A DNA stretch of 64,000 bases from Longimicrobiales bacterium (GTDB lineage Bacteria > Gemmatimonadota > Gemmatimonadetes > Longimicrobiales > Gaopeijiaceae), in NCBI GenBank assembly GCA_965202985.1, contig CBDBCF010000002.1, positions 160,001 through 224,000 of the forward strand, read 5' to 3'. A program made the translations under genes and the position numbers. Shown here piece by piece: positions 3,001 to 45,062 of this stretch; positions within the stretch are counted from its first letter, which is position 1; each line of letters begins with the position of its first letter. Under the pieces are notes generated by a model, which ran no database searches, was not told where the DNA came from, and saw only the letters and a list, made by a program, of their open reading frames with translations.

Positions 3001-5185
3001 CGCCGACGGAGATCGTGCCGGCCTCGAGCACTTGGCTCATGAGCGCGCGCAGGCGGAAGCGGCGGGCGTGATCTTTCATCCAGCCCGCCTGGAACGCGGC
3101 GTCCTGCCGGTTGTCGCAGAAGACGAGAAGGCGCCGCCGCTCGGCGTGTTGCACCATGTCCTGCGAAAGGACGTGCACGTCGGCAACGTTGACGGCGCGC
3201 ACCTCGCGGGCAGGCTCCCGGTACCGACCGCCGCTGGGACGGCGACCCACCGATCCGCACGACAGGCAGCTCGTGAGAAGGCCCGGATTGTCCTTCTTCT
3301 GCCGGACCGCCAGCAGCTCCAAGAGCGGCCCCGGGCGGCCGCATGCCGAGCAGCTCGCCTGTGCCCGGGCGTGAGCGGCGCCGCAGCGACGGCAGAAGGC
3401 GAGCGACGCCGTGCGCTTGTGGGCGGGTGCGTCGTCGTCGTCCGCTTCGTCCGCGCCGATGAGCCGGTCGGTGACCAGGACGCGCTTTCCGCCCGCCTTC
3501 TGGTCCAGTCGCTCCCACCAGGGACCGCTGGGGCTCGCGTTGCCCCCGCCCGGCTTGGTTCCCGTGAAGGCGAAGTCCTTGAGGAATGCGACGAAGTAGT
3601 GCTGTCCGCACGTCGTGCAGGTGGTCACGGGGAAGCGGGCGCGGGCGCCGTCGGGTCCGTTGCTGGCGGCTTCGTCTTCGGCGGCCAGCCAGAGCCTGGG
3701 ACCGGAGGCCCCGTCGGGGAACGACGCGACCGCGCCGCCGACGCCGCGCACGAACGCATGCACGACGGGGCGAAGCAATGGGCGCCCTTGCAGGCGTGCC
3801 GCCGCCCCCAGCGTGAGCCAGGACAGGATCTCGGCTTGGGACGCGGACCTTCCAATCCGTTGCTCTAGGGCGGCGGGCAACGCCTCCAGGGCACGGGGCT
3901 CGGCAAGCTCCTCGTTCAGCGCGTAGACGACCTCGTTCTGCGACAGAGCCGCGTGCAGCGCCACCGGCCAGCCTTTGCCGCTGCCATCTCCATCGCCATC
4001 CGCGCCCGGAAGCGTTCGGCCCGACAGGGACCAGTAGGCCGCGCGAACCCTGCCTCCTACCGGGTCTTCGTCTTCGACGGCTCGCACGCACTGGTCGAGG
4101 ATGCCGGTGGCGTCTCCGTCGGGCGTGGGCGGCAGGAATCGCTGGCTAGCCCAGACCTCGGCCTCGTAGTCCTCTCCGACGGTTGCCACGTCCTCCGGCG
4201 CGACGCCGAAGAACCGAGCGGCGAAGTTGCGCGCCGCTTCCGGGTCCTCCCGGTCCACGATGGTGGCGGAAGTGGCGATGCACGTCGTGTGCTCCGGCCC
4301 CGCGTCGCAGAAGGCGCGAAGGCGGCGGAGCAGACAAGCGGACTCGGCCCCCATGACGCCAGTGAAGGTGTGGGCCTCGTCGAACACCAGGTAGTCCAGG
4401 CGCGCGCCGGCGAATAGTTCGATGTCGCGGCGGCGGGTCAGCAGAAGCTCCAGCTGCTTCACGTTGGTGAGCAGGATGCGCGGCTGGCGGCCCGGCGTCC
4501 GCATCGCTTCGCGCGAGCACACTTCCTCTGCAGGGTAGACGGCCTCTCCTTGACCGTCCTTTCGCGCCTGCTCCAACCGCGCCCGGTAGTCTGCCCGGGA
4601 CGAACCGGCGGGCAAGCGGAGGCCCGTCACGCCAGACTCCCCTTCCGGAGTCTTGCCGACGTAGATGCCGAACGAGACTCCAGTTCCGGCCAGCAGGTCC
4701 CGGAGCCGCAACAGCTGGTCCTCGGCGAGCGCGTTCATGGGGTAGACGATCACGGCGCTGACGCCCGGCGGCGCGTCTTCGTCCCGCAGCTCCAGGCACT
4801 TGCTGACGATGGGGTAGAGAAAGCACTCGGTCTTGCCCGAGCCGGTGCCCGTGGACACCAGTGTGGTCCGTCCCTCGGCGACGGCCCGAACCGCCTTTTC
4901 CTGGTGGCTGTACAGGTGAGTGATCGCCTCGGGAATCCGCTCCCGAAGAAGCGGGTGCAGCAGCCCCTCGCCCACCAGGTCATCCACCGCCGCGCCCTGC
5001 CTGAACGGGCGGGACAGGCTAACGTAAGGTCCCTTCAGCAGGGGCGACTGCCGGGTCTCGTCCAGAGAGAGGAGGTCGCGCATCTGGCCGCGAAGCCCCT
5101 CGTCCATGAACGGATAGGCCGTGAGCTGGTACCGCAGGAAGCTGCCGACAACCTTCTCGGTGTAGGCGACGGGGTTCAGGGCCAT
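1..5185 (-). CDS. DEAD/DEAH-box helicase with C-terminal DUF1998 (DruE/DrmAB-like), 3' end beyond the window
   Basis: Not in the ORF track because it has no stop in the window. Translated by hand from ATG 5185 (MALNPVAYTEKVVGSFLRYQL). Motifs: STGTGSGKTECFLYP, YPMNALAEDQL, FDEAH, ATSAT, TPTLELGIDIG, QRAGRAGRR and DUF1998-type LYDPMPGGSG...CPALCESACTDCLQTFRN. The tail EAKLRRLL...TTTPDVIY may begin a nuclease domain. Confidence 0.9.
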   Translation of the reverse strand, partial: MALNPVAYTEKVVGSFLRYQLTAYPFMDEGLRGQMRDLLSLDETRQSPLLKGPYVSLSRPFRQGAAVDDLVGEGLLHPLLRERIPEAITHLYSHQEKAVRAVAEGRTTLVSTGTGSGKTECFLYPIVSKCLELRDEDAPPGVSAVIVYPMNALAEDQLLRLRDLLAGTGVSFGIYVGKTPEGESGVTGLRLPAGSSRADYRARLEQARKDGQGEAVYPAEEVCSREAMRTPGRQPRILLTNVKQLELLLTRRRDIELFAGARLDYLVFDEAHTFTGVMGAESACLLRRLRAFCDAGPEHTTCIATSATIVDREDPEAARNFAARFFGVAPEDVATVGEDYEAEVWASQRFLPPTPDGDATGILDQCVRAVEDEDPVGGRVRAAYWSLSGRTLPGADGDGDGSGKGWPVALHAALSQNEVVYALNEELAEPRALEALPAALEQRIGRSASQAEILSWLTLGAAARLQGRPLLRPVVHAFVRGVGGAVASFPDGASGPRLWLAAEDEAASNGPDGARARFPVTTCTTCGQHYFVAFLKDFAFTGTKPGGGNASPSGPWWERLDQKAGGKRVLVTDRLIGADEADDDDAPAHKRTASLAFCRRCGAAHARAQASCSACGRPGPLLELLAVRQKKDNPGLLTSCLSCGSVGRRPSGGRYREPAREVRAVNVADVHVLSQDMVQHAERRRLLVFCDNRQDAAFQAGWMKDHARRFRLRALMSQVLEAGTISVGDLTASLDDRLDEDEALSRALIPEVWQAAPSDGTGVRHRQERRKYLRIQVLREVALSPRQAYGLEPWGRMKVEYDGLSSTDPWIQLHAHQLGIPPDKLREGVASVLDYLRRKRALFDPVHEVFTKHWMDGDREVQQGYLPGFLKPNATKLRREPTEKPAQVTQWLSTGGGDTTMRQIARKWGVAGDAVEAFLEGLFEYLVEAGLLVRVVLKGSRKRPLPGVSGVFQVAADKLLLKPNRGVWRCRKCRRKATRDVPHGLCPAWRCDGALEWIKEDPDDYNLRLLDGDYSMLRSDEHTAMVPPDERDRLENRFKGESDAVNCLVCTPTLELGIDIGRLDSVLMRNVPPLPANYWQRAGRAGRRHRMAVNVTYCRPVSHDRAYFADPPKLLGGKIDPPAFNLRNEVMVAKHVHAVAIGALYRYSQDPERPEAERNRIRNMLNAALPRRVAPYLFADGAVRDAPFDFGPLRSLVEDLSHSLTHDAKRVFRQGWPEADAAVVADAALQGHVQRFTDELEEVVTRLRHRLQWAMRQIGRLNREQELKGSLEPPEEALRRRCDRLVKQLKGTSPRNWRHAEGHDDANTFGVLAAEGFLPGYGLETGAVTGWAEVPFWKAGPAEFRLPRPPATALREYVPGNLIYANGHRFAARRFHRDANERRTDMATYAVSRRRRAVAEAPHGGGTDGDATLPTMAVCDVDLVHTSHISDEEDLRFQLGVAVAGVERNQHSGGDAYRWGAQSLLLRRGVRMRLVNVGPATSMEGGGALGYPVCSVCGHSVSPFASDRQREEFDKGHEERCNRKPGLVGFHADVIADALSLPACDGQTTAHSVLEALRFGAARVLDMHIDDLQVLVVGKMHEEAVDALLWDPMPGGSGLLERICDRFGEVVAAARQVVGECPALCESACTDCLQTFRNAYYHRFLDRGNAVKRFDKWGSNLAWEHNIPPRQPDATLPRSSTIPVNAAEAKLRRLLLRAGFAEGGRDEQIRLDRVLGTTTPDVIYRGPG

Positions 5186-5243
5186 GGACGGGGGCTGATC
5201 TTGTCAATCAACATCACGGATAGGCAGGTTCTTCTCGTCGGAG

Positions 5244-30784: not shown

Positions 30785-31594
30785 TCAGCTCCCCTTGAAG
30801 GCGGGCTTCCGTTTCTCCACGTAGGCGTCCAGCCCCTCGCGCGCGTCGCCGCTGGCGAAGAGCTGCTGCTGAAGCTCGCGCTCCAACGCCAGAGCGGTCT
30901 CGAAGGGCACCTCGGCGCCGGTCTGCACGGAGCGCTTGATCGCGCCCACGGCCTTGGACGCCCTGGCCGGCGGACAGAAGCCCCCGGCGTACTCCAGGAC
31001 CCGGGCCATGAAGGCGTCGTGGCTCTCGGTTTCCCAGACTTCGTGGACGATCCCCAGCTCCTTGGCCTCGTCGAAGCCGAAGGTGCGGCCCGTCGCCATG
31101 AGTTCGATGGACTTCGCCTTGCCCACCAGGCGGGCCAGCCGCTGCGTGCCGCCGGTGCCGGGAAGCACGCCCAGGTTGACCTCGGGCAGCCCGGCCTTGG
31201 CGCGCCCCGCCCGCGCGACCCGGATGTCGGCCGCCATCGCCACCTCGAGTCCCCCGCCGACGGTGTGCCCGTTCAGGGCCGCCACCACCAGCTTGGGCGT
31301 GTGCTCCAGCCGGTTGAGCGTCTCGTTGGCGTGAAGGCAGAAGTGGTACTTGAAGCCCGTCGTGACGCGGGCCAGCATCGCGATGTCGGCCCCGGCGCAG
31401 AAGAACTTGTCCCCGGCCCCCGTCACCACGACGACGTGGACCGCGTCGTCGAAGCGCGCCTTCAAGACGGCTTCGTCGAGCTGGCGCATCATCTCGTGGG
31501 TGTAGGTGTTGGCGGGCGGATCGTCCAAGGTCAGGACGGCGACGCCGTCTTGGGTCTCGTAGCGAACCAGAGTCTTGCCGGAGCTGTCGGACAT
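30785..31594 (-). CDS. Enoyl-CoA hydratase/isomerase family protein
   Basis: FFCAGADI, GGGLEVAMAAD, LPEVNLGVLPGTGGTQRL. Alternative start at 31621. Confidence 0.9.
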   Translation of the reverse strand: MSDSSGKTLVRYETQDGVAVLTLDDPPANTYTHEMMRQLDEAVLKARFDDAVHVVVVTGAGDKFFCAGADIAMLARVTTGFKYHFCLHANETLNRLEHTPKLVVAALNGHTVGGGLEVAMAADIRVARAGRAKAGLPEVNLGVLPGTGGTQRLARLVGKAKSIELMATGRTFGFDEAKELGIVHEVWETESHDAFMARVLEYAGGFCPPARASKAVGAIKRSVQTGAEVPFETALALERELQQQLFASGDAREGLDAYVEKRKPAFKGS

Positions 31595-31805
31595 CGGCGG
31601 CCTCGGGGGGTGAAGGTTCATGGCTTGGAAGCGCCCGAAAGATAATGTGAGCGGAGCCGAACGACGCCCGAGTCCGGCGGCGGGTCCGACGACGGTCCGG
31701 CGACGTGGATTGCGACCGGGCGCGGGTTGGGCGGGCGGGGCGCGTCTCTTTGGCGTAGATTGATTTCGGGCGCGGATGCGTAGTTGACCAGAGGAGGTTC
31801 GTCGA

Positions 31806-33245
31806 ATGTTCAGCAAGCGAAAGGGAACGCCGGCCGCCCTGGGCGGAACGCTGGTCGCCCTGGCCTTGGCCCTGGTCGCGCCGGCCGTGGCGGTGGTCGA
31901 CGCCGTGGAGGGCCAGGACGACGCGACGCCGACGGTGGTGCGCGTGCCGGTGGACGGGACGGTGGAGATGGGGCTGGCCCCGTTCATCGAGCGAGCGCTG
32001 GAAGAGGCCGCCGCCGAGGGTGCTCGGGCCGTGGTCTTGGAGATCGAGACGCCGGGGGGGCGAGTGGACGCCGCGGAGCGGATCGTGGGCGCCGTGAGCC
32101 GCTCGTCCGTGCCCGTATACGCCTACGTGAACATGTACGCCTATTCGGCCGGGGCCATGATCGCCCTGGCGGCCGAGCAGGTCTTCATGCGGACGGGCGC
32201 CGTGATGGGGGCCGCCACGCCGGTCGACGGCCAGGGAACCAAGGCGTCCGAGAAGGTCGTCTCGGCGATGCGGGGCCGGATGCGGGCGCTGGCCGAGGCG
32301 CGCGGACTGGACCCCCGAGTGGCCGAGGCGATGGTGGACGAGGAGCTGGCCATCGACGAGGTGGTGGAAGAGGGCAAGCTCCTGACGCTGACCACCGAGG
32401 AGGCCGTGGAGCTGGGGTACGCCGTCGCGGTGGCGGACTGGGACGACGTGATGGGCGAGATCGGGCTGGGAGCGGCGGGGCCGGCCGGAGCGGGAGCGGT
32501 CGCCGGCGGCGACGGACCCGGGGCCGTGACGGTCGTGGACGCCCGCGTGAACTGGGCGGAGCGGCTGGTGCGCTTCTTCACCAGTCCGGTGATCGCGCCG
32601 TTCCTGTTGTCGCTGGGGTTCCTGGGGCTGATCGTGGAGATCAAGACGGCAGGGTTCGGCTTGGCGGGCGCCGCCGGGCTCCTGTCGCTGGCGCTCTTCT
32701 TCGGGGCGCACCTGCTGGTGGGGTTGGCCGGCGCCGAGGACCTGATCCTGGTCGGCGTGGGGGTGGTCCTGGTGCTGGTCGAGATACTGGTCGTGCCGGG
32801 CTTCGGGATCGCCGGCATCGCCGGGGGGGTGGCGCTCGTCGGCGGACTCTTCATGACCCAGATCGGCAGCCTGCCCACGCAGCAGGACTTCACGCGGGCG
32901 GCCGCGGTCCTGAGCACCACGGTCGTGCTGGTCGTCCTGACCACGTGGGCGTTTCTGCGGACCTTGCCGCGCAACTGGCGCCTGCGCCGAAGCGGCGTGC
33001 TGCTGCCCGAGTCCACCGACCGGGACGAGGGGTACATCTCCGCAAGCGTTCGGCCCGACTTGGAGGGCGCGCGCGGCGTGGCGATCACCGCGCTCCGCCC
33101 CGCCGGGATGGGCCTCTTCGGCGACGAACGAGTGGACGTGGTGTCCGAAAGCGAGTGGATCGAAGAGGGCACGCCGATCCGAATCCTCAGCGCCGAGGGC
33201 TACCGTCACATCGTGCGCGCCGTGAAGTCCCATCAGGCGGAGTAG
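31806..33245 (+). CDS. nfeD: NfeD family membrane-bound serine protease (YqeZ-like)
   Basis: Signal peptide. ClpP-like ETPGG...AYSAGAMIAL. Transmembrane block. C-terminal OB-fold (GVAITALRPAG...VDVVSE). Confidence 0.92.
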   Translation: MFSKRKGTPAALGGTLVALALALVAPAVAVVDAVEGQDDATPTVVRVPVDGTVEMGLAPFIERALEEAAAEGARAVVLEIETPGGRVDAAERIVGAVSRSSVPVYAYVNMYAYSAGAMIALAAEQVFMRTGAVMGAATPVDGQGTKASEKVVSAMRGRMRALAEARGLDPRVAEAMVDEELAIDEVVEEGKLLTLTTEEAVELGYAVAVADWDDVMGEIGLGAAGPAGAGAVAGGDGPGAVTVVDARVNWAERLVRFFTSPVIAPFLLSLGFLGLIVEIKTAGFGLAGAAGLLSLALFFGAHLLVGLAGAEDLILVGVGVVLVLVEILVVPGFGIAGIAGGVALVGGLFMTQIGSLPTQQDFTRAAAVLSTTVVLVVLTTWAFLRTLPRNWRLRRSGVLLPESTDRDEGYISASVRPDLEGARGVAITALRPAGMGLFGDERVDVVSESEWIEEGTPIRILSAEGYRHIVRAVKSHQAE

Positions 33246-33339
33246 CTTGATTCCACCCGAGGCCGCCGTCGCGCGCTCACGGAGTCGGCCCTAACGAGGT
33301 CCGGCCCCGCACACCTTCCCAAAACGGAACCGCAACCAA

Positions 33340-34329
33340 ATGAACGAGACTCTCCTTTTCCTGGCCGTCCCCGCGCTCCTGGTCGTGGCGATCATGATCC
33401 TGGGCTGGGCCATCCCCGTTCGCCTGTGGATCGAAGCCACCTTCTCCGGCGTGCGCCTGGGGCTGGGCAGCTTGGTGGGAATGCGCCTGCGCAAGGTCAG
33501 CCCGCCCGCCGTGGTGCGGCCCTTGATCGCGTCCACCAAGGCCGGCTTGCCCCTGGACGTGTCGCATCTGGAGGCCCACTACTTGGCCGGCGGCGACGTG
33601 GACCGGGTGGTGCGCGCGCTGATCAGCGCCGACAAGGCCAACATCGAGCTTCCCTTCCAGCAGGCGGCGGCGATCGACTTGGCGGGCCGGGAAGTCTTCG
33701 AGGCCGTGCAGGTCTCGGTGAACCCGAAGGTCGTGCAGACGCCGCGGGTGGCAGCGATGGCCAAGGACGGCATCCAGCTGATCGCCGTGGCGCGGGTCAC
33801 CGTGCGGGCCAACATCAATCGGTTGGTCGGCGGCGCCGGAGAGGAGACGATTCTGGCGCGCGTGGGCGAGGGGATCGTGTCCACGATCGGGTCCGCCGAC
33901 ACGCACAAGGCGGTTCTGGAGAACCCGGACGCGATCTCCAAGACCGTGTTGCAGAAGGGGTTGGACTCGGGGACCGCCTTCGAGATTCTGTCGATCGACA
34001 TCGCCGACGTGGACGTGGGGAAGAACATCGGCGCCGAGCTGCAGACCGACCAGGCCGAGGCCGACAAGCGGGTCGCCCAGGCGCGAGCCGAGGAGCGCCG
34101 CGCCATGGCGATGGCCAAGGAGCAGGAGATGAAGGCCAAGGTCGAGGAGATGCGGGCCGAGGTCGTGGCGGCGGAGGCGAAGGTCCCGCTTGCGATGGCC
34201 GACGCCTTCCGCAGCGGCAACCTGGGCGTCATGGACTACGCCAAGTACCGCAACGTGGAGTCGGACACCCACATGCGCCGCGCGATTGCCACCGGCGACC
34301 CGGACGCGCCCTCCGAATCCGAGTCCTAG
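33340..34329 (+). CDS. floA: Flotillin-like protein FloA (YqfA/SigmaW regulon family)
   Basis: [56 protein letters not shown]. Follows nfeD. Confidence 0.95.
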
Positions 34330-34371
34330 TCGAGCCGAACGCCGAGCCCGCCAGCCGAACGGAGCCGCCCC

Positions 34372-37155
34372 GTGGACCTCCAGATCCTGGTCATCGTCGT
34401 TGTCGTGGTCCTGTCGATCCTGGACGCGGTGATGAAGAAGGCCAAGAAGCGCGGGCTGGAGCTGCCCCAGAGCGACGAGCCGGCGGCCACTTCGGAGGTG
34501 GAGCAGGGGCACCCGCCACCTGTGCCCGGCCCGGACGCGGCGTCGCGGCCCTCCACGGCCGGCCCTCCGTCGGCGGGAAGGCGCCAGTCGGCGTTGGACA
34601 TCCTGGTCCCGCCGGAGATACGAAAGGAGCTGGAGGACTTGGTCTCGGGCGGGGGGCCGAGGGCCGGGCAAACGACGTCTCCGCCGACGCAGGCGTCTGG
34701 ATCGGGGGAGCTCTCGGGGACTTCCATGCCGTCGGATCGGCGTTCACTCCCGGCACCTTCCGAGGCGTCTGCGTCGTCCACCGCAGATCCTTCCTGGGAA
34801 AAAGAGGGTTCGCTAGGCGAGTGGCTGGCTCCTGACCACGGCCGCAGCGCGCCACAGGTCGAAGTGCGTTCAAGGGTGCCTCGTCCCTTGAACGTGCATG
34901 CCCCAGAGCCTCGCCCGGAGCGTCGAGCGGTACCGAGCGTGCCCACCACGCCCGGGTCGCCGGCTCGGCCTCACCCCCCACTCGCCAGCAGGCTTGGCTT
35001 CAGCACGATGTCCGACCTGCGACGCAACATCGTTGCGCGAGAGATCCTAGGTGCGCCCGTGGCGCTGCGGGACGACGGCCAATGGCGCGGAGAAGCAGGA
35101 TCCCGGCCCTTGGCGACACCCTTGGTGCCGCCGCCTACTTCTCCAGAACCCCCATCTTCGCCTCCCTCGACGCCCTCCGACCCCCCAACGCCGAAGCCAC
35201 CACAGCCGGAGTCGGAGGACGACAAGACACCGATCTCGGTCGGCGGAAAACGTCGTGACCCTCACAAGCCTTCGGACGAGACACCTGCGAATAGGGAGCG
35301 CCTGTCCGGCTTTCGCAGGCCAGAACTGCGGTGTCGCGAGACCTCCGACTCGCATTGGGAAGTCGTAGTGGACTTACCGAACGCGCCCAGCCTACCCAAG
35401 ATATTGCTTGACGGTCAACAACTGCCGACCTCCGACCGATGCTGTCCGCTTCCCAGCCTTGACCGCAACATCGTTGCGGTGCTGGATGGGGGCAGCACGG
35501 TCGAGCTGCTGACCCCTGGCTTGCCTCTGATCTTCAAAACGGCAAAGCACTGGAAGTCCGGCGGACGGCGCGTTGGTCGAGTCACGCGCGGCTATTTCGT
35601 GGTGATCGTTCCCGAAGGCTGGCGGCGCGAGGGTCCTCCCCCTCCGGTTGCTCCCACGAAGGCTACGGCTCCTGGGTACCAAGCGCATTACGAGTACTGG
35701 GACGGCCGCAGCAACGACCGAGTGCGCTTCGCAGGACACGATCTGCCTATGGCGAACGACATTGAGATTCTCAAAGGTTCAACTCTCTTTGACGATGATC
35801 TGGATCACGGCCCCCTTTTTGTCGGCGACCCGCCGAGATTGACGAATTCGAACGCCTTCGCGTGGGCGATGGTGGGGGAGGAAGGAGTTCCCGACGGTTG
35901 GCGATGCCGCTTCAAGCCGTCGAAACACCAACTGGCCGACCTGCTGGAAGGCCGGGAGGGCTGGTTCTTTGTGCGACTGTACGATGCGAACGTTGCACTC
36001 CAGGCGAGCACCGACTTCCGTTATTCCCGTTGCTTGGCTCAGATCCACGTGAACAACCAAGCCTACTCGGGCACGACGATACTGCTTCCAGCCGAGACTG
36101 GCCACGATCTCACTCGCCTGGCATTTATTGACCGAACGGGCAGTCCAGTCAATCCCTGGTACTCACGCCTCCAGCCTACAGTCGTTGATGCGATTGCGGA
36201 CAAGCATGCTGACGACGTGCGTGTGGAACTAAGGTCGCCAGCCGGCAGAATACCAGTAAGGGTCCAACTGCCCCGACTCTGGTGGCGACTTGTGGGTGAC
36301 GATACCGAGCACGATTGGCAGTCCACCGCATTTCGCTGGGTGCCCCAAGAGTACCATAGACTCGCCGAAATCGGGACAACGATATGTCTAGATATGCCCC
36401 GCCATGTGCCGGATGTCAGCTGTGGCTTCGACGGTGACACCACACGTCGGTATCGTCGATCAAAATCAGGTTACTTCGAGATTCCATTGGACGAGTTCTT
36501 GGATGAACTGGACGACTTCTTCGACGAACATGCACCCCATGTGGAATCCCGAGATCGAATAGCCCTTGGCGTTACCTCTAATCTGGTGTCTCGCAACGTG
36601 CCCATCGTTCACGTACACCGCGAACCTGTCGAGAACGGTCCCATGGACTACAACGAGCCTATGGATATTCCCCGCTCGGAGGACGATGACCATGAATTCG
36701 TAGCTGTCGAGCAGAGACCCCCGCCACCAGATCCCATAACGCAACGAGACTGCGAGGAGTTTCTCGTCTGTCACTGCGACTCCCATGATTTTCACAGTTG
36801 GGAAGAGGCTAGAAGCAATGGCGTTGTGAACATACCGTACTTGACGCGATTCCCGATGGGATTGCCATCACCGGGTTCCCGACTTTGGGTGTGCTTGTCA
36901 GGCAGAGGCTATGTCGGGGTGGGGATCGTTGCCAATCGGAACCGTGGCCAACCCCAGCGTCCGGCGACTAAAGATGGACCGTGGACCACCGAGGTGCCGG
37001 TCGACTGGTACGACACCCTACCCGAGACCAAGATGCTTTTCGGTCCCGAGATTATGCTTGTTTCGGCTGTTGTGCCTATCAGGAACGATGGACCCAAGTG
37101 TCGCGAAACAGTTGAAGCCCTCAAGACAGGGCTCAAGTGGCGCATCGATGCCTGA
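34372..37155 (+). CDS. Chimeric protein: YqfB-like membrane-anchored N-terminus, Pro-rich linker, uncharacterised beta-rich region, putative PUA/EVE-like C-terminus
   Basis: N-terminal TM helix and DLRRNIVAREILGAPVALR, typical of the third gene of nfeD-floA operons. The frame stays open for ~690 more codons of visibly lower-GC sequence. Its stop overlaps the helicase start (ATGCCTGA). Confidence 0.7.
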   Translation: MDLQILVIVVVVVLSILDAVMKKAKKRGLELPQSDEPAATSEVEQGHPPPVPGPDAASRPSTAGPPSAGRRQSALDILVPPEIRKELEDLVSGGGPRAGQTTSPPTQASGSGELSGTSMPSDRRSLPAPSEASASSTADPSWEKEGSLGEWLAPDHGRSAPQVEVRSRVPRPLNVHAPEPRPERRAVPSVPTTPGSPARPHPPLASRLGFSTMSDLRRNIVAREILGAPVALRDDGQWRGEAGSRPLATPLVPPPTSPEPPSSPPSTPSDPPTPKPPQPESEDDKTPISVGGKRRDPHKPSDETPANRERLSGFRRPELRCRETSDSHWEVVVDLPNAPSLPKILLDGQQLPTSDRCCPLPSLDRNIVAVLDGGSTVELLTPGLPLIFKTAKHWKSGGRRVGRVTRGYFVVIVPEGWRREGPPPPVAPTKATAPGYQAHYEYWDGRSNDRVRFAGHDLPMANDIEILKGSTLFDDDLDHGPLFVGDPPRLTNSNAFAWAMVGEEGVPDGWRCRFKPSKHQLADLLEGREGWFFVRLYDANVALQASTDFRYSRCLAQIHVNNQAYSGTTILLPAETGHDLTRLAFIDRTGSPVNPWYSRLQPTVVDAIADKHADDVRVELRSPAGRIPVRVQLPRLWWRLVGDDTEHDWQSTAFRWVPQEYHRLAEIGTTICLDMPRHVPDVSCGFDGDTTRRYRRSKSGYFEIPLDEFLDELDDFFDEHAPHVESRDRIALGVTSNLVSRNVPIVHVHREPVENGPMDYNEPMDIPRSEDDDHEFVAVEQRPPPPDPITQRDCEEFLVCHCDSHDFHSWEEARSNGVVNIPYLTRFPMGLPSPGSRLWVCLSGRGYVGVGIVANRNRGQPQRPATKDGPWTTEVPVDWYDTLPETKMLFGPEIMLVSAVVPIRNDGPKCRETVEALKTGLKWRIDA

Positions 37156-40100
37156 AACACACGACATCCTCGAGTGGACAGCGACGATACGTCGTCGCTA
37201 CGAAAACTACCTAAGAACGCTGTTCTACTTCAAGGACGCTGGGCTTCGGGCGTCCTTTCGCAACGCTCTTCAGAAAGGCGACGGCCTCCTCAAGGGCCCA
37301 TTTTCCGAGGAAGATCAGGGATTTCTATACGGCGCAACGCCGAGGGACATGGCTGAAGCCGCATTTCCGCAGCGGAGTGCTGATCTGTGGCCAGCACTGC
37401 TTGACAAGCCTCTCTACACTCATCAGGAACAGGCTTTGCAGAACGTGCACTGTCGAGGGCGTAATGTGGTCGTAGCTACCGGTACCGCTAGTGGCAAGAC
37501 TGAGAGTTTCTTGTATCCGATTCTATTCTCTCTATATCGCGAGCACCTGGAGAAGAAGCTGGAACGTCCTGGCGTACGCGCCATGATACTGTACCCGATG
37601 AACGCACTGGCCAACGATCAGAGAGACCGGCTGGGCGCAATCTGCGACGCACTGGAGAAAGAAAAATCTCAGTTCCGCTTCACCTTTGGCCAGTACATTG
37701 GCCAAACACCGGAAAACTCCCGGGACAGTTATCGGAATGCTCCGGTCCGAGCAGAAGAACGCCTCCCGGGCGAGATGGTCTTTCGAGAGGACATGCGCCA
37801 ATATCCTCCTCACATCCTGCTGACGAACTACTCGATGCTTGAGTACTTGTTGATCCGACCGCAGGACAGCTCGTTGTTCGACGGTGGCAGAGGTTCTCGC
37901 TGGAGGTTTATTGTGTTGGACGAGGCTCACCAGTACCGCGGCGCAAGGGGTATGGAGATGGGCATGTTGCTGCGGCGATTGAAAGAACGCGTGCGCGACG
38001 GAGGCCGAACCGATGGATTTCAATGCATCGCGACAAGCGCGACGATTTCCACCAAACAGAGTAGCACGGAGAAGTTGAATGTCGCCGATTTTGCATCGGA
38101 GTTGTTTGGCGCTCAGTTTAGCGACAGCGACATAGTGTTCGGATCACGAGTGGCCGACAGGCGTGACACGACGCGGCGCCATCACGTATTTGTTCGTGCG
38201 CTGGAAGGGGCGTTTGTGGTTCATGAACAAGGTGAGGACAGGATTGTCTTGAACAGGACGGCAGGTGCAGACGGTCGCAACGGCTCAACACCGCTGGAGA
38301 TTGCACTGTGTCGAGAGTGTGGTCAACACTATTACGTGGGGCGGGTAGTGGGTGGGAGGTTGAGCGAAGCCGTCAGGGACCCAAGCCACACGGCCTTCGG
38401 TGTAGAATTCTTCCTGCCGTCCAATCGCGGAGATCAGTTGCTTTGTCGGCAATGCGGCCGGATTGGAGTTTTGAGGGCGCCGCCGATGTGCGATTGTGGC
38501 GCAATGGTGCAGGTAATGACCTGTCCTTCACACGGGAAGCGGGCTGACCAGCTGGCAAAGTGCGAGTCGTGCGGATACGGACGGGGTGGCGTGGGCGATC
38601 CGGTTCAGGAAGTTGTCCACGGTCACGACGGCCCGAACACCGTTATTGCCACCACGTTGCATGAGCTTCTGTCGGCCGAGTCACGGAAGATCCTTGCGTT
38701 TGCGGATAGTAGGCAAGAGGCAGCGTTCTTTGCCTGGTACCTTGAAGATACATATGACAAGATCCGTGACCGGAATCTAATGTGGAGGGTTGTGGAACGA
38801 ATGGGTGCTGGGGCGGAGGCGCTGTCGCTCTCGGACCTGGCGGATGGAATGTCGCGGCTCTGGGGCGAGCACAGACTGTTCCGGGCATCGGACACTGAGC
38901 TGGCTAGGAGGCGCCAGATCTTGGGGGCGATCTTGGCGGAGGCCATGACGTCGGAGAGACGCTTGTCGCTCGAAGGGGTCGGATTAGTGAAGTGGTACAC
39001 GGAGTTGCCCGACGACGTCGAGATGCCACGGACACTGTCGGAGAGTGCCTGGGGTCTTGACGAGGAAGAGGGCAGACGACTAGCCCTTAGGCTTGTGGAC
39101 GAGTTCCGAAGGAACCGCGCGGTCGAGTTGTCGGAGGGATATCCGGTCTGGGGGTGCGTTTCACCGTGGCCGCAACGGGCGTTCGGTGCAGGACCACCCA
39201 GAGGAAGAAGGAATGTGGCCGAATGGGGTAGTGCCGGATCAGGGATCGTCCAGCATTTCTTGACGAGGGTGTGGCTTGACGACGGGCCGGGCTCGGCGGA
39301 GGTTGAAGCAAGCAAGGCCGGTGTTGAGTTGATGAAGCAGCTGTGGAGAGCGTTGCGTGCTCGGGACCGCAGGGTGCCCGCTTCGGAGCGGTTTCTGATT
39401 GGAACGGGTGCTGGCAAGTATCGAGTTTCGCCTGAGTGGCTGCGGATTGCACGAGTAACGAATGGAGGGCTGTGGGAGTGCGGGATGTGCGGCGCCGTCA
39501 GCCCTACGAACATTCGAGATGTGTGCGACAGGCGTGCGTGTCCGGGCCGTCTTCGGTCGGTGGTACCGGGGCGGCTGGACCAGAACTACTATCGGGAGTT
39601 GTACGCCAACGCTAGCATGCCATCCCGGCTGCGGTCGGAAGAACACACTGCGCAGATCGACAGCGAGGAGGCGAGGATACGGCAGAACGGCTTCAAGCAG
39701 GGCGATATTCATGTGCTGAGCTCCTCGACTACGTTCGAAGTCGGCGTCGACCTAGGGGACCTTGACGTCGTGTTTCTGCGCAACGTACCACCGGAGGCGT
39801 TCAACTACACCCAGCGGGTCGGGAGGGCGGGGCGTCGCGACAGTCCCGGCGTGGCTGTTACGTACTGCCGTCGGAACCCGCACGACTTGTATCACTACGA
39901 GAATCCAGCGCAACGAATCATCAAAGGGGAGATCAGGCCGCCACGGCTGCGGATGAGCAACGAGAAGATCATCCGTCGGCACATGACAGCTGTTGCACTT
40001 TCCGCCTTTTTTCGCGAACGGCCGAATGCAGACCGTTTTTCGCGGGTGAAGAGGTTTGTGGGAGATTGGTTGAAGCCAAGCGGCACGTCTTCGTTTCGGG

Positions 40101-41386
40101 AGTTCTGCACACAGGATCGGTCTCTGGAGGCGACGCTTCGGCGGGTGGTGCCGAACGATGTCCACGAAGCTGTCGGACTCGCAGACGGAACATGGATCGA
40201 AGAAGTGTCGGGATCCAAAAGTCGTCTGGCAGAGATGGAAGCCGAGGTTTGTGGAGACTACCGTACAATGAATGAAGCGAAGGATAGGTTGATTGACAAG
40301 CAACCAAGGTCATGGACTAAGCGGGTGGAGAGAATCGAGCGACGGATGAGGGGAATCACCTCGGAACGCACGCTGAATTTGCTGTCGCGAAAGGCTGTGA
40401 TACCGAAATATGGATTTCCAGTTGACGTTGTGGAGCTCGACACACACGGGGAAAAGGGCGTTGCTCTTGCCCGTGATTTGTCGCAGGCAATCGCGGAGTA
40501 CGCACCAGGGAGTTCCGTCGTAGCGAAGAAGCTGGAGTGGAAGTGCGCTGGGCTGAAGGTCGTTCCTGGATGCCAGTTGCCCGTTCGACGGTATCAGTAC
40601 GATGATGCGCGAAATTTTCGCCAAGAGGAAAAAGCCGGAACGGTGTTTGCGGATTCGTTGGAGCGGGCGTACGTGTCGCCGGTGTTTGGGTTTGTAACAC
40701 CTCATATGGGATCACAAACGCCCAAAGGACGTTCCCGTCGCTTGTACACGACAAGGCCGTTTTTCCAGGGAGTGGGGAAGGAAACGGGGACCGACGCCAG
40801 GGTGGTGGCAGGCGTGCGCATAACCAAAGCGCAACCGGGAACACTGGTCATTTTGTGCGAAGGCAAGGCTAGAGCGGGATTCCACATATGTCTCACGTGT
40901 GGTAGCGGTTTCAAGGAGCTGACGGTGCCACACAAGTCGCCATATGGCGGTAGTTGCAACGGAACGCTTGAACGGCTGTCTCTCGGGCACGAGCTGGCCA
41001 CTGACGTGGTTCGCTTGCAGTTTCCCGGGCTGAGCGGCGAATGGGACGCGTACTCGGTGGCGTACGCTGCTGTTCTTGGCGTGGCAAAGGCCTTGGACGT
41101 TCCAGATACAGATCTGAACGTCACGATTACGGCCGGCGAACGCCCGACAGAGACCGGGATCGTATTGTACGACAACGTGCCGGGTGGGGCTGGCCTGGTA
41201 GCACAGCTCGAAGACGAGCCGTTGTTCCGAGAAGCATTGGAAAGGGCATGCGAACGCGTTGAAGGAGGTTGCGGATGCGACATGAGTTGCTACGGCTGTC
41301 TGCGAAGCTATCGCAACCAGTTCGCACACCCGCATCTGAACCGGAAGAGAGCAAGGTCGTTCCTTATGGATGTCGCGACAGCGTGA
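37148..41386 (+). CDS. DEAD/DEAH-box helicase with DUF1998 (Druantia DruE-like)
   Basis: Start ATG 37148 (MPETHDIL). Motifs ATGTASGKTESFLYP, YPMNALANDQ, LTNYSMLE, DEAH, AFADSRQ, EEHTAQ, STTFEVGVDLG, QRVGRAGR, IPKYGFP and LYDNVPGGAG...CGCDMSCYGCLRSYRNQ. Confidence 0.92.
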   Translation: MPETHDILEWTATIRRRYENYLRTLFYFKDAGLRASFRNALQKGDGLLKGPFSEEDQGFLYGATPRDMAEAAFPQRSADLWPALLDKPLYTHQEQALQNVHCRGRNVVVATGTASGKTESFLYPILFSLYREHLEKKLERPGVRAMILYPMNALANDQRDRLGAICDALEKEKSQFRFTFGQYIGQTPENSRDSYRNAPVRAEERLPGEMVFREDMRQYPPHILLTNYSMLEYLLIRPQDSSLFDGGRGSRWRFIVLDEAHQYRGARGMEMGMLLRRLKERVRDGGRTDGFQCIATSATISTKQSSTEKLNVADFASELFGAQFSDSDIVFGSRVADRRDTTRRHHVFVRALEGAFVVHEQGEDRIVLNRTAGADGRNGSTPLEIALCRECGQHYYVGRVVGGRLSEAVRDPSHTAFGVEFFLPSNRGDQLLCRQCGRIGVLRAPPMCDCGAMVQVMTCPSHGKRADQLAKCESCGYGRGGVGDPVQEVVHGHDGPNTVIATTLHELLSAESRKILAFADSRQEAAFFAWYLEDTYDKIRDRNLMWRVVERMGAGAEALSLSDLADGMSRLWGEHRLFRASDTELARRRQILGAILAEAMTSERRLSLEGVGLVKWYTELPDDVEMPRTLSESAWGLDEEEGRRLALRLVDEFRRNRAVELSEGYPVWGCVSPWPQRAFGAGPPRGRRNVAEWGSAGSGIVQHFLTRVWLDDGPGSAEVEASKAGVELMKQLWRALRARDRRVPASERFLIGTGAGKYRVSPEWLRIARVTNGGLWECGMCGAVSPTNIRDVCDRRACPGRLRSVVPGRLDQNYYRELYANASMPSRLRSEEHTAQIDSEEARIRQNGFKQGDIHVLSSSTTFEVGVDLGDLDVVFLRNVPPEAFNYTQRVGRAGRRDSPGVAVTYCRRNPHDLYHYENPAQRIIKGEIRPPRLRMSNEKIIRRHMTAVALSAFFRERPNADRFSRVKRFVGDWLKPSGTSSFREFCTQDRSLEATLRRVVPNDVHEAVGLADGTWIEEVSGSKSRLAEMEAEVCGDYRTMNEAKDRLIDKQPRSWTKRVERIERRMRGITSERTLNLLSRKAVIPKYGFPVDVVELDTHGEKGVALARDLSQAIAEYAPGSSVVAKKLEWKCAGLKVVPGCQLPVRRYQYDDARNFRQEEKAGTVFADSLERAYVSPVFGFVTPHMGSQTPKGRSRRLYTTRPFFQGVGKETGTDARVVAGVRITKAQPGTLVILCEGKARAGFHICLTCGSGFKELTVPHKSPYGGSCNGTLERLSLGHELATDVVRLQFPGLSGEWDAYSVAYAAVLGVAKALDVPDTDLNVTITAGERPTETGIVLYDNVPGGAGLVAQLEDEPLFREALERACERVEGGCGCDMSCYGCLRSYRNQFAHPHLNRKRARSFLMDVATA

Positions 41387-41401
41387 CCGAAGCGACTCCG
41401 A

Positions 41402-41914
41402 TCATCCGTCGAGGCTTCCTTCGCCCTCGGCAGGATCCGGGCGGCGTCCTTCCGTCTTCATGACTGTGGGTTTCACCGGATCGCCTTCTGGCGTCTCGGA
41501 TCTGCCTGTCGACTCGCCGCCGACCGGGTAGTCCTTACCCGTTTCCCGCACCACGAGCGGGCGGGGAGACGATCGCTCGTCAAGCTTGGCGTTGACGGCG
41601 CTGACCGTTGCCTTCAGCTCGCCGATCTCCCGGGCGAACTCGGCGATCTTCCCGAGCAGTTCTGCGTGGTTGGCACGAGCCCGCTCTTCTTGCCGGTCGA
41701 TACGATGTCCGAGGGCTTCGTCGCCCTTGTCGATCCGCTGTACGAGCCTCTCTTCACTCTTGTCGATCCGGTGTACGAGCCTCCCTTCGAGCTTGTCGAT
41801 CCGCTTTCCGGTGTCGGTTCGCAGAGCCCAGAAGAGACTGGCCGCGGCAACGACGACGGAAAAGACGGTGACGAAGACGTCGCTGGACAGGAAATCCACC
41901 ACGGTCTCGTCCAT
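41402..41914 (-). CDS. Membrane-anchored coiled-coil protein with 11-aa RIDK repeats
   Basis: Hydrophobic VFVTVFSVVVAAASLFWAL, then RIDKLEGRLVH/RIDKSEERLVQ/RIDKGDEALGH/RIDRQEER. Confidence 0.75.
   Translation of the reverse strand: MDETVVDFLSSDVFVTVFSVVVAAASLFWALRTDTGKRIDKLEGRLVHRIDKSEERLVQRIDKGDEALGHRIDRQEERARANHAELLGKIAEFAREIGELKATVSAVNAKLDERSSPRPLVVRETGKDYPVGGESTGRSETPEGDPVKPTVMKTEGRRPDPAEGEGSLDG
41693..41803. repeat. 33-bp intragenic tandem repeat (3-4 units)
   Basis: cttgtcgatccg occurs at 41726, 41759 and 41792, with a degenerate unit at 41693. Confidence 0.85.
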
Positions 41915-42027
41915 TTTCTCGGTGGTCTCGCCCCGGCAATCCGGGCTTGGGTCGGAAGCTGACCGACACCATAACAGGTACCGCAAGCCCCCCAACCCCG
42001 ACCGCCGCCCTCCGGCTGGACGCGCTG

Positions 42028-44784
42028 CTACCTCCCTTCGGCCGCCAACTTCCGCAGCACCGTGTGGAGGATGCCGCCGTTGCGGTAGTACTCCACCTCG
42101 ACATCCGAGTCCAACCGGGCCGTCGCGCTGAACTCGATCCGAGCGCCGTCGGGGCGGGTGGCCTTCACCTCGACCTGGCTGCGGCGCCCCAGCCCGTCGG
42201 CGATTCCCGCGATGTCGTAGGTCTCGTCGCCGCTCAGCCCGAGCGACTCGGCGCCTTCGCCCTCCGCGAACTGGAGAGGCAGCACGCCCATCCCCACCAA
42301 GTTGGAGCGGTGGATGCGCTCGTAGCTCTCGGCGATCACCGCGCGCACGCCGAGCAGCAGCGTGCCCTTGGCCGCCCAGTCGCGGGAGCTCCCAGTTCCG
42401 TACTCGCGCCCGGCGATCACGATCAGGGGCGTCCCAGCCGCCCGGTAGCGCTCCGCCGCCTCGAAGATCGGCACGACGTCGCCGCTGGGGACGTGCCGGG
42501 TCCAGCCGCCTTCCTTGCCGTCGAGCAGCAGGTTGCGCAGCCGCACGTTGCCGAAGGTGCCCCGCATCATCACTTCGTGGTTCCCGCGCCGAGCGCCGAA
42601 GGTGTTGAAGTGGATCGGCGTCACGCCCAGCCCCTGGAGGTACTGGCCGGCGGGCTCGTCCCTGGGAATCGCGCCGGCGGGCGAAATGTGGTCGGTGGTC
42701 ACCGTCTGGCCCAGCAGCGCAAGCACTCGGGCGTCTCGCACGTCCTCGGGTGCCGGAGCCTCGGAGCTCATCCCCTGGAAGAAGGGCGGGTTGCGGATGT
42801 AGGTGGACTCGGCGTCCCACTCGTAGAGGCTCCCTTCCTCCGGCAGGGGAAGGGCGCGCCAGTGCTCGTCGCCGTCGAACACGCTGCCGTAGCGCTCCCG
42901 GTACATCTCCGGCTTCAGCGACGCCGCCACCGTGTCGCGAACCTCGCCGGGCGACGGCCAGATGTCGGCCAGGAAGACGGGCACGCCGTCGCGGTCGCAG
43001 CCCAGCGGCTCGTCCCGCAGGTCGATGTCGATTCGCCCAGCCAACGCGAACGCCACCACCAGCATCGGCGACGCAAGGTAGTTGGCGCGCACCAGCGTGT
43101 GGATGCGGGCCTCGTAGTTGCGGTTCCCCGACAGGATCGACGCCACGACCAGCCCGTTCTTCTCGACGGCCTCGGCCACCGGCCCGGGCAGCGGTCCGCT
43201 GTTGCCGATGCAGGTCGTGCAGCCGTAGCCGACCAGGTTGAACTTGAGCTCCTCCAAGTACCGCATGAGCCCGGCCGCCTCCAAGTAGTCCGTGACCACC
43301 TGCGAGCCCGGCGCCATGCTCGTCTTCACCCACGGCTTCGGCTCCATCCCCAGCGCCCGCGCCTTCGTGGCCATCAGTCCGGCGCCGACCATGACCGACG
43401 GGTTGGACGTGTTCGTGCAGCTGGTGATCGCGGCCACCACGATGCTCCCGTCGCCGATCTCCATCCGCTCGCCGTCGATCTCAATCTCGACGCTGCGTCG
43501 AGCGTCGGGCGCCGTCCCGCCTTGCGGCTCGGCACCGTTGCCGGACGCGCCCGTCCTGCCGAACCCCGCTGGACGCAGCTTCGGCAGGTCCGTGGGGAAC
43601 GCCCGGTCGATCTCCGTCAGCGCGATCCGGTCCTGGGGACGCTTCGGCCCCGCCAAGCTGGGCACCACGGTCGAGAGGTCCAGCTCCAGGGCGGTCGTGT
43701 ACTCGGGGTCGGGGGTGTCGTCGGTGCGGAAGAGGCCCAGCTCCTTGGCTACCCGCTCCACGCGCTCGACGTGGGCGGGCTCCCGCCCGGTGCCCCTCAA
43801 GTAGCGCAGCGCCTCGTCGTCCACGGGGAAGAAGCCGACGGTGGCGCCGTACTCGGGGGACATGTTGGCCAGCGTGGCCTTGTCCGGCAGGCTCAGCGCC
43901 GACAGGCCGGCCCCGTAGTACTCGACGAACCGTCCCACGACCCCGTGGGCGCGGAGCATCTCGGTCACCCGGAGGACGAGATCGGTGGCGGTCGCGCCTT
44001 CGGAGAGCGCGCCGGTGAACTTCACGCCCACCACGTCCGGCAGGAGCATGTGGTAGGGCTGGCCCAGCAGCACCGCCTCCGCCTCGATCCCGCCGACGCC
44101 CCAGCCCACCACGCCCAGCCCGTTGATCATCGTCGTGTGGGAATCGGTTCCGACCACCGTGTCCGGGTAGGCCAGCGCGCCGTCGCCGTGCTCCCGCCGG
44201 TGCACCACCGACGCCAAGTACTCCAGGTTGACCTGATGCACGATCCCGGTGCCCGGGGGCACGACCCGGTAGTTCTCGAAGGCCTCCTGCGCCCAGCGAA
44301 GGAGGGCGTAGCGCTCCCGGTTCCGCTCGTACTCTCGGGCGACGTTCTTCTCGAAGGCGTAGCCGGTCCCGAAGAAGTCCACCTGCACCGAGTGGTCGAT
44401 CACGAGGTCGGCCGGGACGAGCGGGTTGATGCGCCCGGGGTCGCCGCCCATCGCGCGGATGCCGTCGCGCATTGAAGCCAGGTCCACGACCGCGGGCACC
44501 CCGGTGAAGTCCTGGAGGACCACCCGCGTGGGCATGAACGGGAAGTCGGGGCGGGGACCGTCGGGCCGCCAGGAAGCCACCGCCTCCACGTCGTCGGGCG
44601 AGACGTGGCCGTCTCCTGCATTGCGCAGCACGTTCTCCAGCAGGATGCGGATCGAGAAGGGGAGGCGGTCCAGCGAGGGGACCACGCCGCTCTCTTCCAG
44701 GCGCGCGAGGCGGTAGAAGGACGCACGGCCCTCCGCCAGTTCGATAGCGGCGAGGGCGCCGAAGGGATCGGTGAGGCTTGGCAC
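42028..44784 (-). CDS. acnA: Aconitate hydratase A
   Basis: LPFSIRILLEN, QDFTGVP, IDHSVQVD, GTDSHTTM, AAITSCTNTSNP, GYGCTTCIGNSG, TTDHISPAG, GSSRDWAAKG. GTG start with AGGAG RBS. Confidence 0.97.
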   Translation of the reverse strand: MPSLTDPFGALAAIELAEGRASFYRLARLEESGVVPSLDRLPFSIRILLENVLRNAGDGHVSPDDVEAVASWRPDGPRPDFPFMPTRVVLQDFTGVPAVVDLASMRDGIRAMGGDPGRINPLVPADLVIDHSVQVDFFGTGYAFEKNVAREYERNRERYALLRWAQEAFENYRVVPPGTGIVHQVNLEYLASVVHRREHGDGALAYPDTVVGTDSHTTMINGLGVVGWGVGGIEAEAVLLGQPYHMLLPDVVGVKFTGALSEGATATDLVLRVTEMLRAHGVVGRFVEYYGAGLSALSLPDKATLANMSPEYGATVGFFPVDDEALRYLRGTGREPAHVERVERVAKELGLFRTDDTPDPEYTTALELDLSTVVPSLAGPKRPQDRIALTEIDRAFPTDLPKLRPAGFGRTGASGNGAEPQGGTAPDARRSVEIEIDGERMEIGDGSIVVAAITSCTNTSNPSVMVGAGLMATKARALGMEPKPWVKTSMAPGSQVVTDYLEAAGLMRYLEELKFNLVGYGCTTCIGNSGPLPGPVAEAVEKNGLVVASILSGNRNYEARIHTLVRANYLASPMLVVAFALAGRIDIDLRDEPLGCDRDGVPVFLADIWPSPGEVRDTVAASLKPEMYRERYGSVFDGDEHWRALPLPEEGSLYEWDAESTYIRNPPFFQGMSSEAPAPEDVRDARVLALLGQTVTTDHISPAGAIPRDEPAGQYLQGLGVTPIHFNTFGARRGNHEVMMRGTFGNVRLRNLLLDGKEGGWTRHVPSGDVVPIFEAAERYRAAGTPLIVIAGREYGTGSSRDWAAKGTLLLGVRAVIAESYERIHRSNLVGMGVLPLQFAEGEGAESLGLSGDETYDIAGIADGLGRRSQVEVKATRPDGARIEFSATARLDSDVEVEYYRNGGILHTVLRKLAAEGR

Positions 44785-44978: not shown

Positions 44979-45062
44979 GCCGAGGTGGCGGAACCGGTAG
45001 ACGCGAAGGTCTCAAAAACCTTTGCCCTTGCGGGCGTGAGGGTTCGAGTCCCTCCCTCGGCA
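44979..45062 (+). tRNA. tRNA-Leu (CAA)
   Basis: Acceptor stem GCCGAGG/CCTCGGC+A. D-loop GGCGGAACCGGTAGACGC. Anticodon arm AAGGT-CTCAAAA-ACCTT. Long variable arm. T-loop GGTTCGAGTCC. CCA not encoded. Confidence 0.97.

Follow-up and report, generated by a model that had tools for sequence, protein, structure and literature searches.

A 64,000-nucleotide stretch of the genome of a Longimicrobiales bacterium (contig CBDBCF010000002.1, positions 160,001 to 224,000), here called the window, carries a flotillin operon that continues into a two-gene helicase module. All features of the operon and the module lie on the plus strand. The first gene (31806..33245) encodes a 479-residue NfeD1b-type protein with matches to the Pfam families NfeD1b_N (1.8e-52), NfeD_membrane and NfeD. 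It is followed in tandem by floA (33340..34329), which encodes a 329-residue flotillin matching Pfam FloA (2.7e-156) and exceeding the cut-off of NF010186; by Pfam and NCBIfam the pair has the make-up of an nfeD1b-floA operon. The third gene of the operon is part of a single 927-codon frame without a stop (34372..37155), which joins it to the partner of a helicase. The stop codon of this frame (37153-37155) overlaps the helicase gene (37148..41386, ATG at 37148), the overlap being 8 nt. The initial annotation, made from the sequence alone, had described a third gene with a transmembrane (TM) start that runs on through a linker into about 690 further codons and overlaps the start of a 1,412-residue DEAH/DUF1998 helicase, and our analysis bears this description out.

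The fused third gene

The fusion protein contains one hydrophobic segment only, a TM helix at residues 1-26 (34372..34449), where the KD19 value reaches 2.84; no other segment exceeds 1.3. A hydrophobic N terminus is also present in unfused third genes. Basic residues just past the helix suggest that the C terminus of the protein is cytoplasmic. The third-gene part closes with a conserved motif (35014-35070, within the matched stretch 34996-35076) and is followed by a proline-rich linker (35077..35307), the in-frame length of which differs among the fused forms. The window third gene had no Pfam or NCBIfam match.

The fusion recurs in other sequences. When the first 245 residues were used as a query among proteins of 509-1,623 residues, the search returned the window protein and two others, P0002 and P0003, both joined to the same partner. 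The 90% cluster of the window protein adds the fused P0164 and also P0163 (668 residues), in which the third-gene half is absent. Four fused sequences from three 90% clusters were found in all, the window included. Identity to the window protein is 327/430 for P0002 and 212/411 (52%) for P0003 in the partner core, 75/130 and 47/128 in the C-terminal tail, and 25/27 and 20/27 in the third-gene motif. A quick tree was built from 57 cores (the 45 closest and distant ones) picked from 201 with enough coverage; P0163 was labeled as fused in this tree though its N-terminal half is absent. The fused forms group with an SH-aLRT support of 90 and are sister, with a support of 99, to the unfused P0004, P0005 and P0165, which start with an amphipathic helix and have the same tail as the fused forms. 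The simplest, albeit unproven, reading is that the fusion arose once and was then kept for a long time. The initial annotation had allowed for a chance integration scar; because the fusion recurs, with core identity down to 52%, a recent scar is unlikely. JGI metagenomes searched with P0003 gave no match, and those searched with the five closest proteins gave distant unfused relatives only.

At 26 of 29 floA loci in related genomes, a stand-alone third gene of 172-370 residues ends just past the same motif, the stop codon of these unfused relatives lying 4-18 codons beyond the motif match. At the remaining three loci, contig ends cut the third-gene region. One of the 26 (L020) is from an unpublished genome (G025), which carries no weight in any of the conclusions. 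Across this set (L002-L030) the third gene is fast-evolving, with a TM helix, a disordered chain and a conserved C-terminal motif; the motif is a candidate docking site. Within the genus, one genome (G003) has an empty site in which the third gene runs directly into acnA, in agreement with the earlier proposal that the third gene captured an acquired, DruE-like two-gene module at its 3' end. A second genome (G002) has the third gene, a small open reading frame (ORF) and acnA at the operon site, and in a third (G001) genes other than acnA lie downstream. Specifically, a repeat-bearing frame of more than 4,500 codons follows the third gene of G001 (L031:5217-19001), where acnA would be.

The GC content falls from about 0.70 to 0.54-0.63, and the GC content at third codon positions (GC3) is 0.93-0.95 in nfeD (0.93) and floA versus 0.64-0.65 in the partner and the helicase. 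The distal part had been described as more AT-rich from the linker onward. It is AT-richer, but the shift begins inside the third gene, at around codon 115, with a GC3 of 0.89 before this point and 0.69 after it; the second halves of three unfused third-gene orthologs have a GC3 of 0.78-0.82. A likelihood scan of codon usage gave no sharp breakpoint, the position of which rests on GC3 and protein identity. P0003 agrees with the unfused third gene of G001 in 143 of 145 residues up to the point matching window codon 115 and, beyond this point, in only 57 of 113. Because the GC3 drop and this identity break coincide, we infer that the 3' half of the third gene (34714..35076) belongs to the cassette, which has been exchanged by homologous recombination.

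A 7,846-nt contig from sequencing run X1 covers 34233-42078 with zero differences, although X1 may be the source sample; the three further fused gene products lend independent support to the frame. In runs X3, X6 and X7 no contig crosses the linker in full, those of X3 breaking inside it, and contigs from a second study cover both sides and break in the linker. Record 5 of run X1, over window positions 34233-34652, belongs to a relative with deeper coverage, which has a 96-nt insertion at 34537 resembling that of G001. Its presence in the run means that related species may share a habitat, in which case the recombination proposed above would be possible.

Probable membrane anchors in the partner family

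We examined the N termini of 159 unfused homologs of the partner with thresholds of our own. The 125 homologs with an N-terminal extension of at least 85 residues were included, and 34 with short N termini were left out. An amphipathic (73) or TM (5) helix was present within the first 40 residues of 78 of the 125. Applied to residues 41-80, the test was passed by 1 of 125; shuffling the first 40 residues 200 times gave a mean of 6.9 (maximum 15), and shuffling the whole extension a mean of 0.4. The remainder of the extensions is rich in Ser, Pro, Glu, Asp, and Thr, which points to a disordered linker. TM starts were also found in distant metagenome relatives (L105, L113, and L119). Other homologs have captured whole domains at the N terminus, namely DUF4389, which we take to be a membrane domain, in two (P0016 and P0113) and a PIN domain in P0117.

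The flotillin third gene, with its TM helix and disordered chain, appears to have taken the place of a part with the same build. An amphipathic or TM helix already stands at the start of most unfused homologs, so membrane tethering is probably a native trait of the partner family that does not stem from the flotillin gene. The reading that the flotillin gene newly conferred the anchor, implied in the initial annotation, is corrected accordingly. Judged from the N-terminal sequences, the fusion looks like an anchor swap in which the third gene replaced the partner's own membrane helix and linker. A literature search by title and abstract found no description of the fusion or of the anchor; subscription papers and bioRxiv supplements, which may cover III-B partners, lay outside its scope.

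The helicase and its partner

The 1,412-residue helicase is a YprA/DruE-like superfamily 2 (SF2) protein with matches to Pfam DEAD, Helicase_C and MZB. Its DEAH box is at residue 258 and its MZB/DUF1998 domain at 1305-1385, and the Walker A, DEAH, motif VI and zinc-cluster motifs are intact. The DruE1 and DruE3 hidden Markov models (HMMs) match at 1e-150 and 1e-145, far above other YprA families. The protein ends 27 residues past the MZB match, with no PLD domain or other C-terminal nuclease; type III-like helicases are described as most often nuclease-free in the accessible text of PMC12458937. Past RecA1 the window helicase is without an insert of about 115 residues that is found in distant relatives (window residues 334-344 align across the gap). 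By its position only, this insert would be the BrxA-like domain, which sits after RecA1 in III-B-like helicases according to the same text. A table of that paper lists contig JAPOVX010000017.1, the source of a helicase 58% identical to that of the window (L043), as III-B-like, the listing, found for one of six contigs looked up, being per contig and not matched to an ORF. The window helicase is probably of the III-B-like class.

The partner core (35308..36636) represents an unnamed family of 696 clusters (50% identity) at E ≤ 0.001; both halves of the fusion exist as stand-alone genes. The model of the core (pLDDT 90) is mostly β-structure and resembles tandem Ig/Fn3-like β-sandwich domains, the matches to Ig/Fn3 sandwiches being only generic (best Z 6.1). 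No DruH chain is among these fold matches, which does not exclude kinship. The partner had no NCBIfam match, PADLOC DruH models matched 0 of 53 partner-family members, and hhalign against a shallow five-sequence YjiT profile gave probabilities of 0.1 and 1.5. By sequence, the partner is not a recognizable DruH. In the accessible parts of three preprints, DruH has central Ig-like domains between helical domains (10.64898/2026.05.13.724313, 10.64898/2026.05.12.724681, and 10.64898/2026.05.13.724758), and a remote kinship with the modeled Ig core is conceivable. The Druantia-type pairing claimed in the initial annotation thus stands as a DruE HMM-positive helicase with an upstream partner but not as a recognizable DruH. 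Because the partner failed the DruH sequence tests, the pair is not filed as DruH-DruE; the locus would work like a Druantia type III system.

The C-terminal domain of the partner (residues 790-927, 36739..37152) was modeled from six sequences with a pLDDT of 81. Its top structure matches are EVE, YTH and ASCH relatives, which places the tail in the PUA-like fold. The matches include PH1033 (1wmm; Z 8.9, root mean square deviation (rmsd) 3.2, 109 residues aligned), VcaM4I (6yex; Z 8.1, rmsd 3.5, 119 aligned), and DISARM DrmA (7s9w chain A; Z 6.9, rmsd 3.5, 109 aligned). Foldseek leads agree with an EVE-like tail, as do Atlas feature matches of 0.95, with EVE in 17% of the members of one set. 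There was no Pfam EVE match. Given the modeled fold, the tail is possibly a reader of a modified base or nucleic acid, although a fold does not by itself establish function. A search with the tail only among longer proteins returned the query itself and nothing else, and Atlas gave no usable match for a full unfused homolog. A weak PDC-S11 match at residues 790-859 was set aside; it is accounted for by the EVE-like tail, not by membership of that system.

The tails of relatives differ. Pfam L13e is found in 41 of 53 aligned members, and ribosomal S6, S5, S18 or TrcR domains occur as single cases among 44 scanned proteins. This variety suggests a swappable bait or sensor. Among the papers listed by a literature search on YprA/DUF1998 helicases, none featured L13e.

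A complex of the partner core with the last 513 residues of the helicase was predicted with a score of 0.50 versus 0.00 for the best control. This is a weak pass: among solved pairs 116 of 157 reach the mark, as do 2 of 215 mismatched ones, but those that reach it with 0.60 or below are only 18 solved pairs and both mismatches. The runs share at least 42% of contacts, and the pLDDT of the partner is at least 79.

The pairing itself is widespread. In 58 of 63 unfused loci from genomes and metagenomes, a related helicase, in some cases frameshifted, begins within 2.5 kb downstream of the partner. The C-terminal part of the fusion thus does occur beside DUF1998 helicases elsewhere, whereas its absence there would have spoken against the initial annotation. 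Two of the other five loci are too short, and three are without a helicase. The single, upstream partner tightly coupled to the helicase, by the 8-nt overlap in the window and by proximity in these loci, is the arrangement of type III systems. None of the 63 unfused loci holds floA or nfeD. The module is rare in the host's family, with a core match in 2 of 200 other genomes, one being an unfused copy elsewhere in G002 (L036:8474-20000). That copy adjoins a second DruE-like helicase, a DEDDh exonuclease-like gene and a DNA-3-methyladenine glycosylase. A search of 72,556 plasmid records with the partner gave no match.

Neighbors were scanned at 19 loci (126 crudely called ORFs, cut to 600 residues, with no control set). 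Restriction-modification, DruA, PDC, Hma/Pbe or further DruE-like neighbors were found at eight loci, a lone Cas6 or methyltransferase match at two, and ABC-ATPase cross-matches at most at nine. A tRNA-anchored island was considered for the window and dropped: no tRNA, direct-repeat pair or integrase was found at the cassette ends, the only tRNA being at 44979 and the short repeats being chance-like. Just beyond the helicase gene, a small minus-strand ORF (41402-41950) has a hydrophobic start and three 33-nt repeats encoding a coiled coil. DNA resembling it is present at the corresponding site of G002 and at other places in the genome.

Further related genes were noted. A frame for a second YprA/DUF1998 helicase, about 1,990 residues long, lies at window positions 1-5203 on the minus strand and runs off the window start (G000:C2:159231-165203; L102:4232-10204), and a third, of about 2,250 residues, is at L101:9005-15775. 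A partial YjiT/DruH-family gene of the host genome (L081, G000:C1:2155609-2157618) covers model positions 339-969 of 1,090. Because no YprA helicase match was found among frames of at least 500 residues in the 19 kb around it, this gene is possibly a remnant.

Interpretation and comparison with known systems

The best explanation of the locus is a membrane-tethered, Druantia III-B-like module with a swapped anchor behind the flotillin operon, to which we assign a probability of roughly 0.55. The mechanism that we propose on the basis of the observed architecture, coupling, recurrence, neighborhood and folds would run as follows. A mobile module of two genes, an Ig-repeat partner and a nuclease-less YprA helicase, would have inserted once behind the operon in an ancestor of these lineages, and the in-frame join would have exchanged the partner's membrane-binding helix and disordered linker for the whole third gene. 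The fusion would then have been kept open over a long divergence and exchanged by homologous recombination with a breakpoint within the third gene. The module is probably transcribed from the flotillin-operon promoter. The partner would hang from the inner membrane by a tether of about 300 residues, with the core and tail in the cytoplasm. The Ig core would scaffold the translationally coupled helicase and recruit or release it, and the EVE-like tail may read a modified base or other nucleic-acid feature of the invader. The helicase would load on exposed single-stranded DNA, unwind it 3' to 5', and block phage replication without a nuclease of its own. Canonical DruH-DruE systems are described in 10.64898/2026.05.12.722862 and PMC13316683. 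In the accessible text of 10.64898/2026.05.13.724758, III-A DruE loads on single-stranded DNA and unwinds it 3' to 5', with the PLD domains dispensable in one study.

Several observations weigh against this explanation. The anchor test was failed by 47 of the 125 homologs, some by a small margin and some probably because their starts were miscalled, and 34 of the 159 had been excluded from it for short N termini. The PIN-domain homolog shows that the family tolerates unrelated N-terminal fusions. The tree is a quick one, with a support below 95 for the fused group. P0163, without the third-gene half, may be a split allele or reflect either an error in assembly or the choice made in gene calling. 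P0002, P0003 and P0164 are known from proteins alone, their place behind floA and before a helicase being presumed. The scanned neighborhoods include nine loci without a defense match and two with a lone one, and the window module lies outside a defense island. Finally, precedent for location is mixed: as far as the accessible text of 10.64898/2026.05.13.724758 goes, III-A DruE is cytosolic, yet it is enriched with membrane proteins upon infection.

Among the alternatives, the anchor swap ranks first, followed by a passenger fusion and then by docking on flotillins. A passenger fusion, or promoter capture, would mean that the join gave the module only a start codon and a promoter, the membrane site being irrelevant and the motif kept for housekeeping. 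This is unlikely, if the strongest of the rivals. It would accommodate the PIN fusion in P0117 with the very variable N termini of the family, the N-terminally shortened P0163, and the conservation of the third-gene motif in the fused forms. It also agrees with a promoter and terminator scan that stayed at chance level and gave no plus-strand promoter-like site at 31400-42100, a scan that suits a GC-rich genome poorly. However, unfused homologs give an anchor signal that greatly exceeds the controls, and the helix removed by the fusion is present in the closest unfused sisters.

Less probable still is a specific flotillin domestication, the strong form of the idea in the initial annotation, in which the motif would dock on FloA or NfeD and hold a reader-helicase in flotillin domains, under envelope-stress control and near the site of phage DNA entry. 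The whole third gene with its conserved motif is retained, and the fusion stays in the operon. The Bacillus yqeZ-floA-yqfB operon is σW-induced according to the accessible text of PMC8144471, and SNIPE and Kiwa, in that of PMC13434031, are precedents for membrane defense. Nevertheless, because 0 of 63 unfused loci hold floA or nfeD, the module does not need flotillins.

That the pair serves DNA repair or processing as a mobile, MrfA-type unit, and not phage defense, is improbable. The helicase has no nuclease and no BrxA-like insert after RecA1, and many loci lie amid housekeeping genes. Against such a role, the DruE HMMs far outscore other YprA families, the contig of a close relative has the III-B-like listing, and the module combines a patchy distribution with alien GC and variable tails. 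Least credible is an artefact, either a misassembly or an internal start that yields the partner separately: a TTG at 35110 with AGGA 9 nt upstream, the call of P0163 without its N-terminal half, and the breaks of the X3 contigs in the linker are outweighed by four fused sequences with in-frame linkers of unequal length, the lack of a conserved in-frame Met at the junction, and the unchanged X1 contig across it.

If the anchor-swap explanation is right, the locus is a natural anchor-swap experiment, suggesting that a large family of helicase partners depends on membrane tethering. Replacement of one anchor by another suggests that such helicase defenses work at the cell membrane. A core envelope gene would have been turned into part of an exchangeable defense cassette, and if the docking idea were true, flotillin operons would be linked to phage defense. 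It is doubtful, but conceivable, that the locus belongs to a widespread undescribed Druantia-like branch whose membrane tether is a modular partner, in which an Ig core is combined with an exchangeable anchor and an exchangeable sensor or bait tail; here it would be flotillin-domesticated, with a modified-base reader and its helicase docked in flotillin domains and turned on by envelope stress.

Among the closest known systems are those of the Druantia III-B-like type. As in the accessible text of PMC12458937, a partner precedes a YprA helicase with an MZB domain, in two genes and with no C-terminal nuclease. The window helicase differs in being without the helical insert of about 115 residues after RecA1, and its partner is not detectably DruH. 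The anchor, the EVE-like tail and the fusion to a host gene are unmentioned in that text. With Druantia III-A (DruH-DruE, E. coli and P. aeruginosa) the locus shares the gene order, a partner with tandem domains of an Ig/Fn3-like kind (in the window by generic matches of the model) and the SF2 helicase core. In contrast, III-A DruE has about 2,000 residues with PLD domains and is reported, in the accessible text, to be cytosolic. The helical N- and C-terminal domains of DruH are absent from the modeled window partner, and there is no profile similarity. The accessible literature portrays the characterized III-A systems as soluble sensors of DNA structure and calls III-B uncharacterized.

Class 1 DISARM DrmA likewise couples a YprA-family helicase to an EVE-like domain. 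However, that domain is on the helicase in DrmA and at the C terminus of the partner in the window, and no methyltransferase or nuclease gene adjoins the window module. The B. subtilis yqeZ-floA-yqfB operon (PMC8144471, accessible text) has the same order of nfeD1b, floA and a third gene, whereas the window third gene is longer by about 690 codons and its correspondence to YqfB is positional only. SNIPE and Kiwa (PMC13434031, accessible text) are composed of unrelated proteins, and the window differs from them in that its effector is a separate, nuclease-free helicase and its anchor comes from a host operon gene. What they have in common is a membrane anchor with cytoplasmic DNA-handling parts and, possibly, the logic of acting near DNA entry or of keeping the effector off the chromosome.

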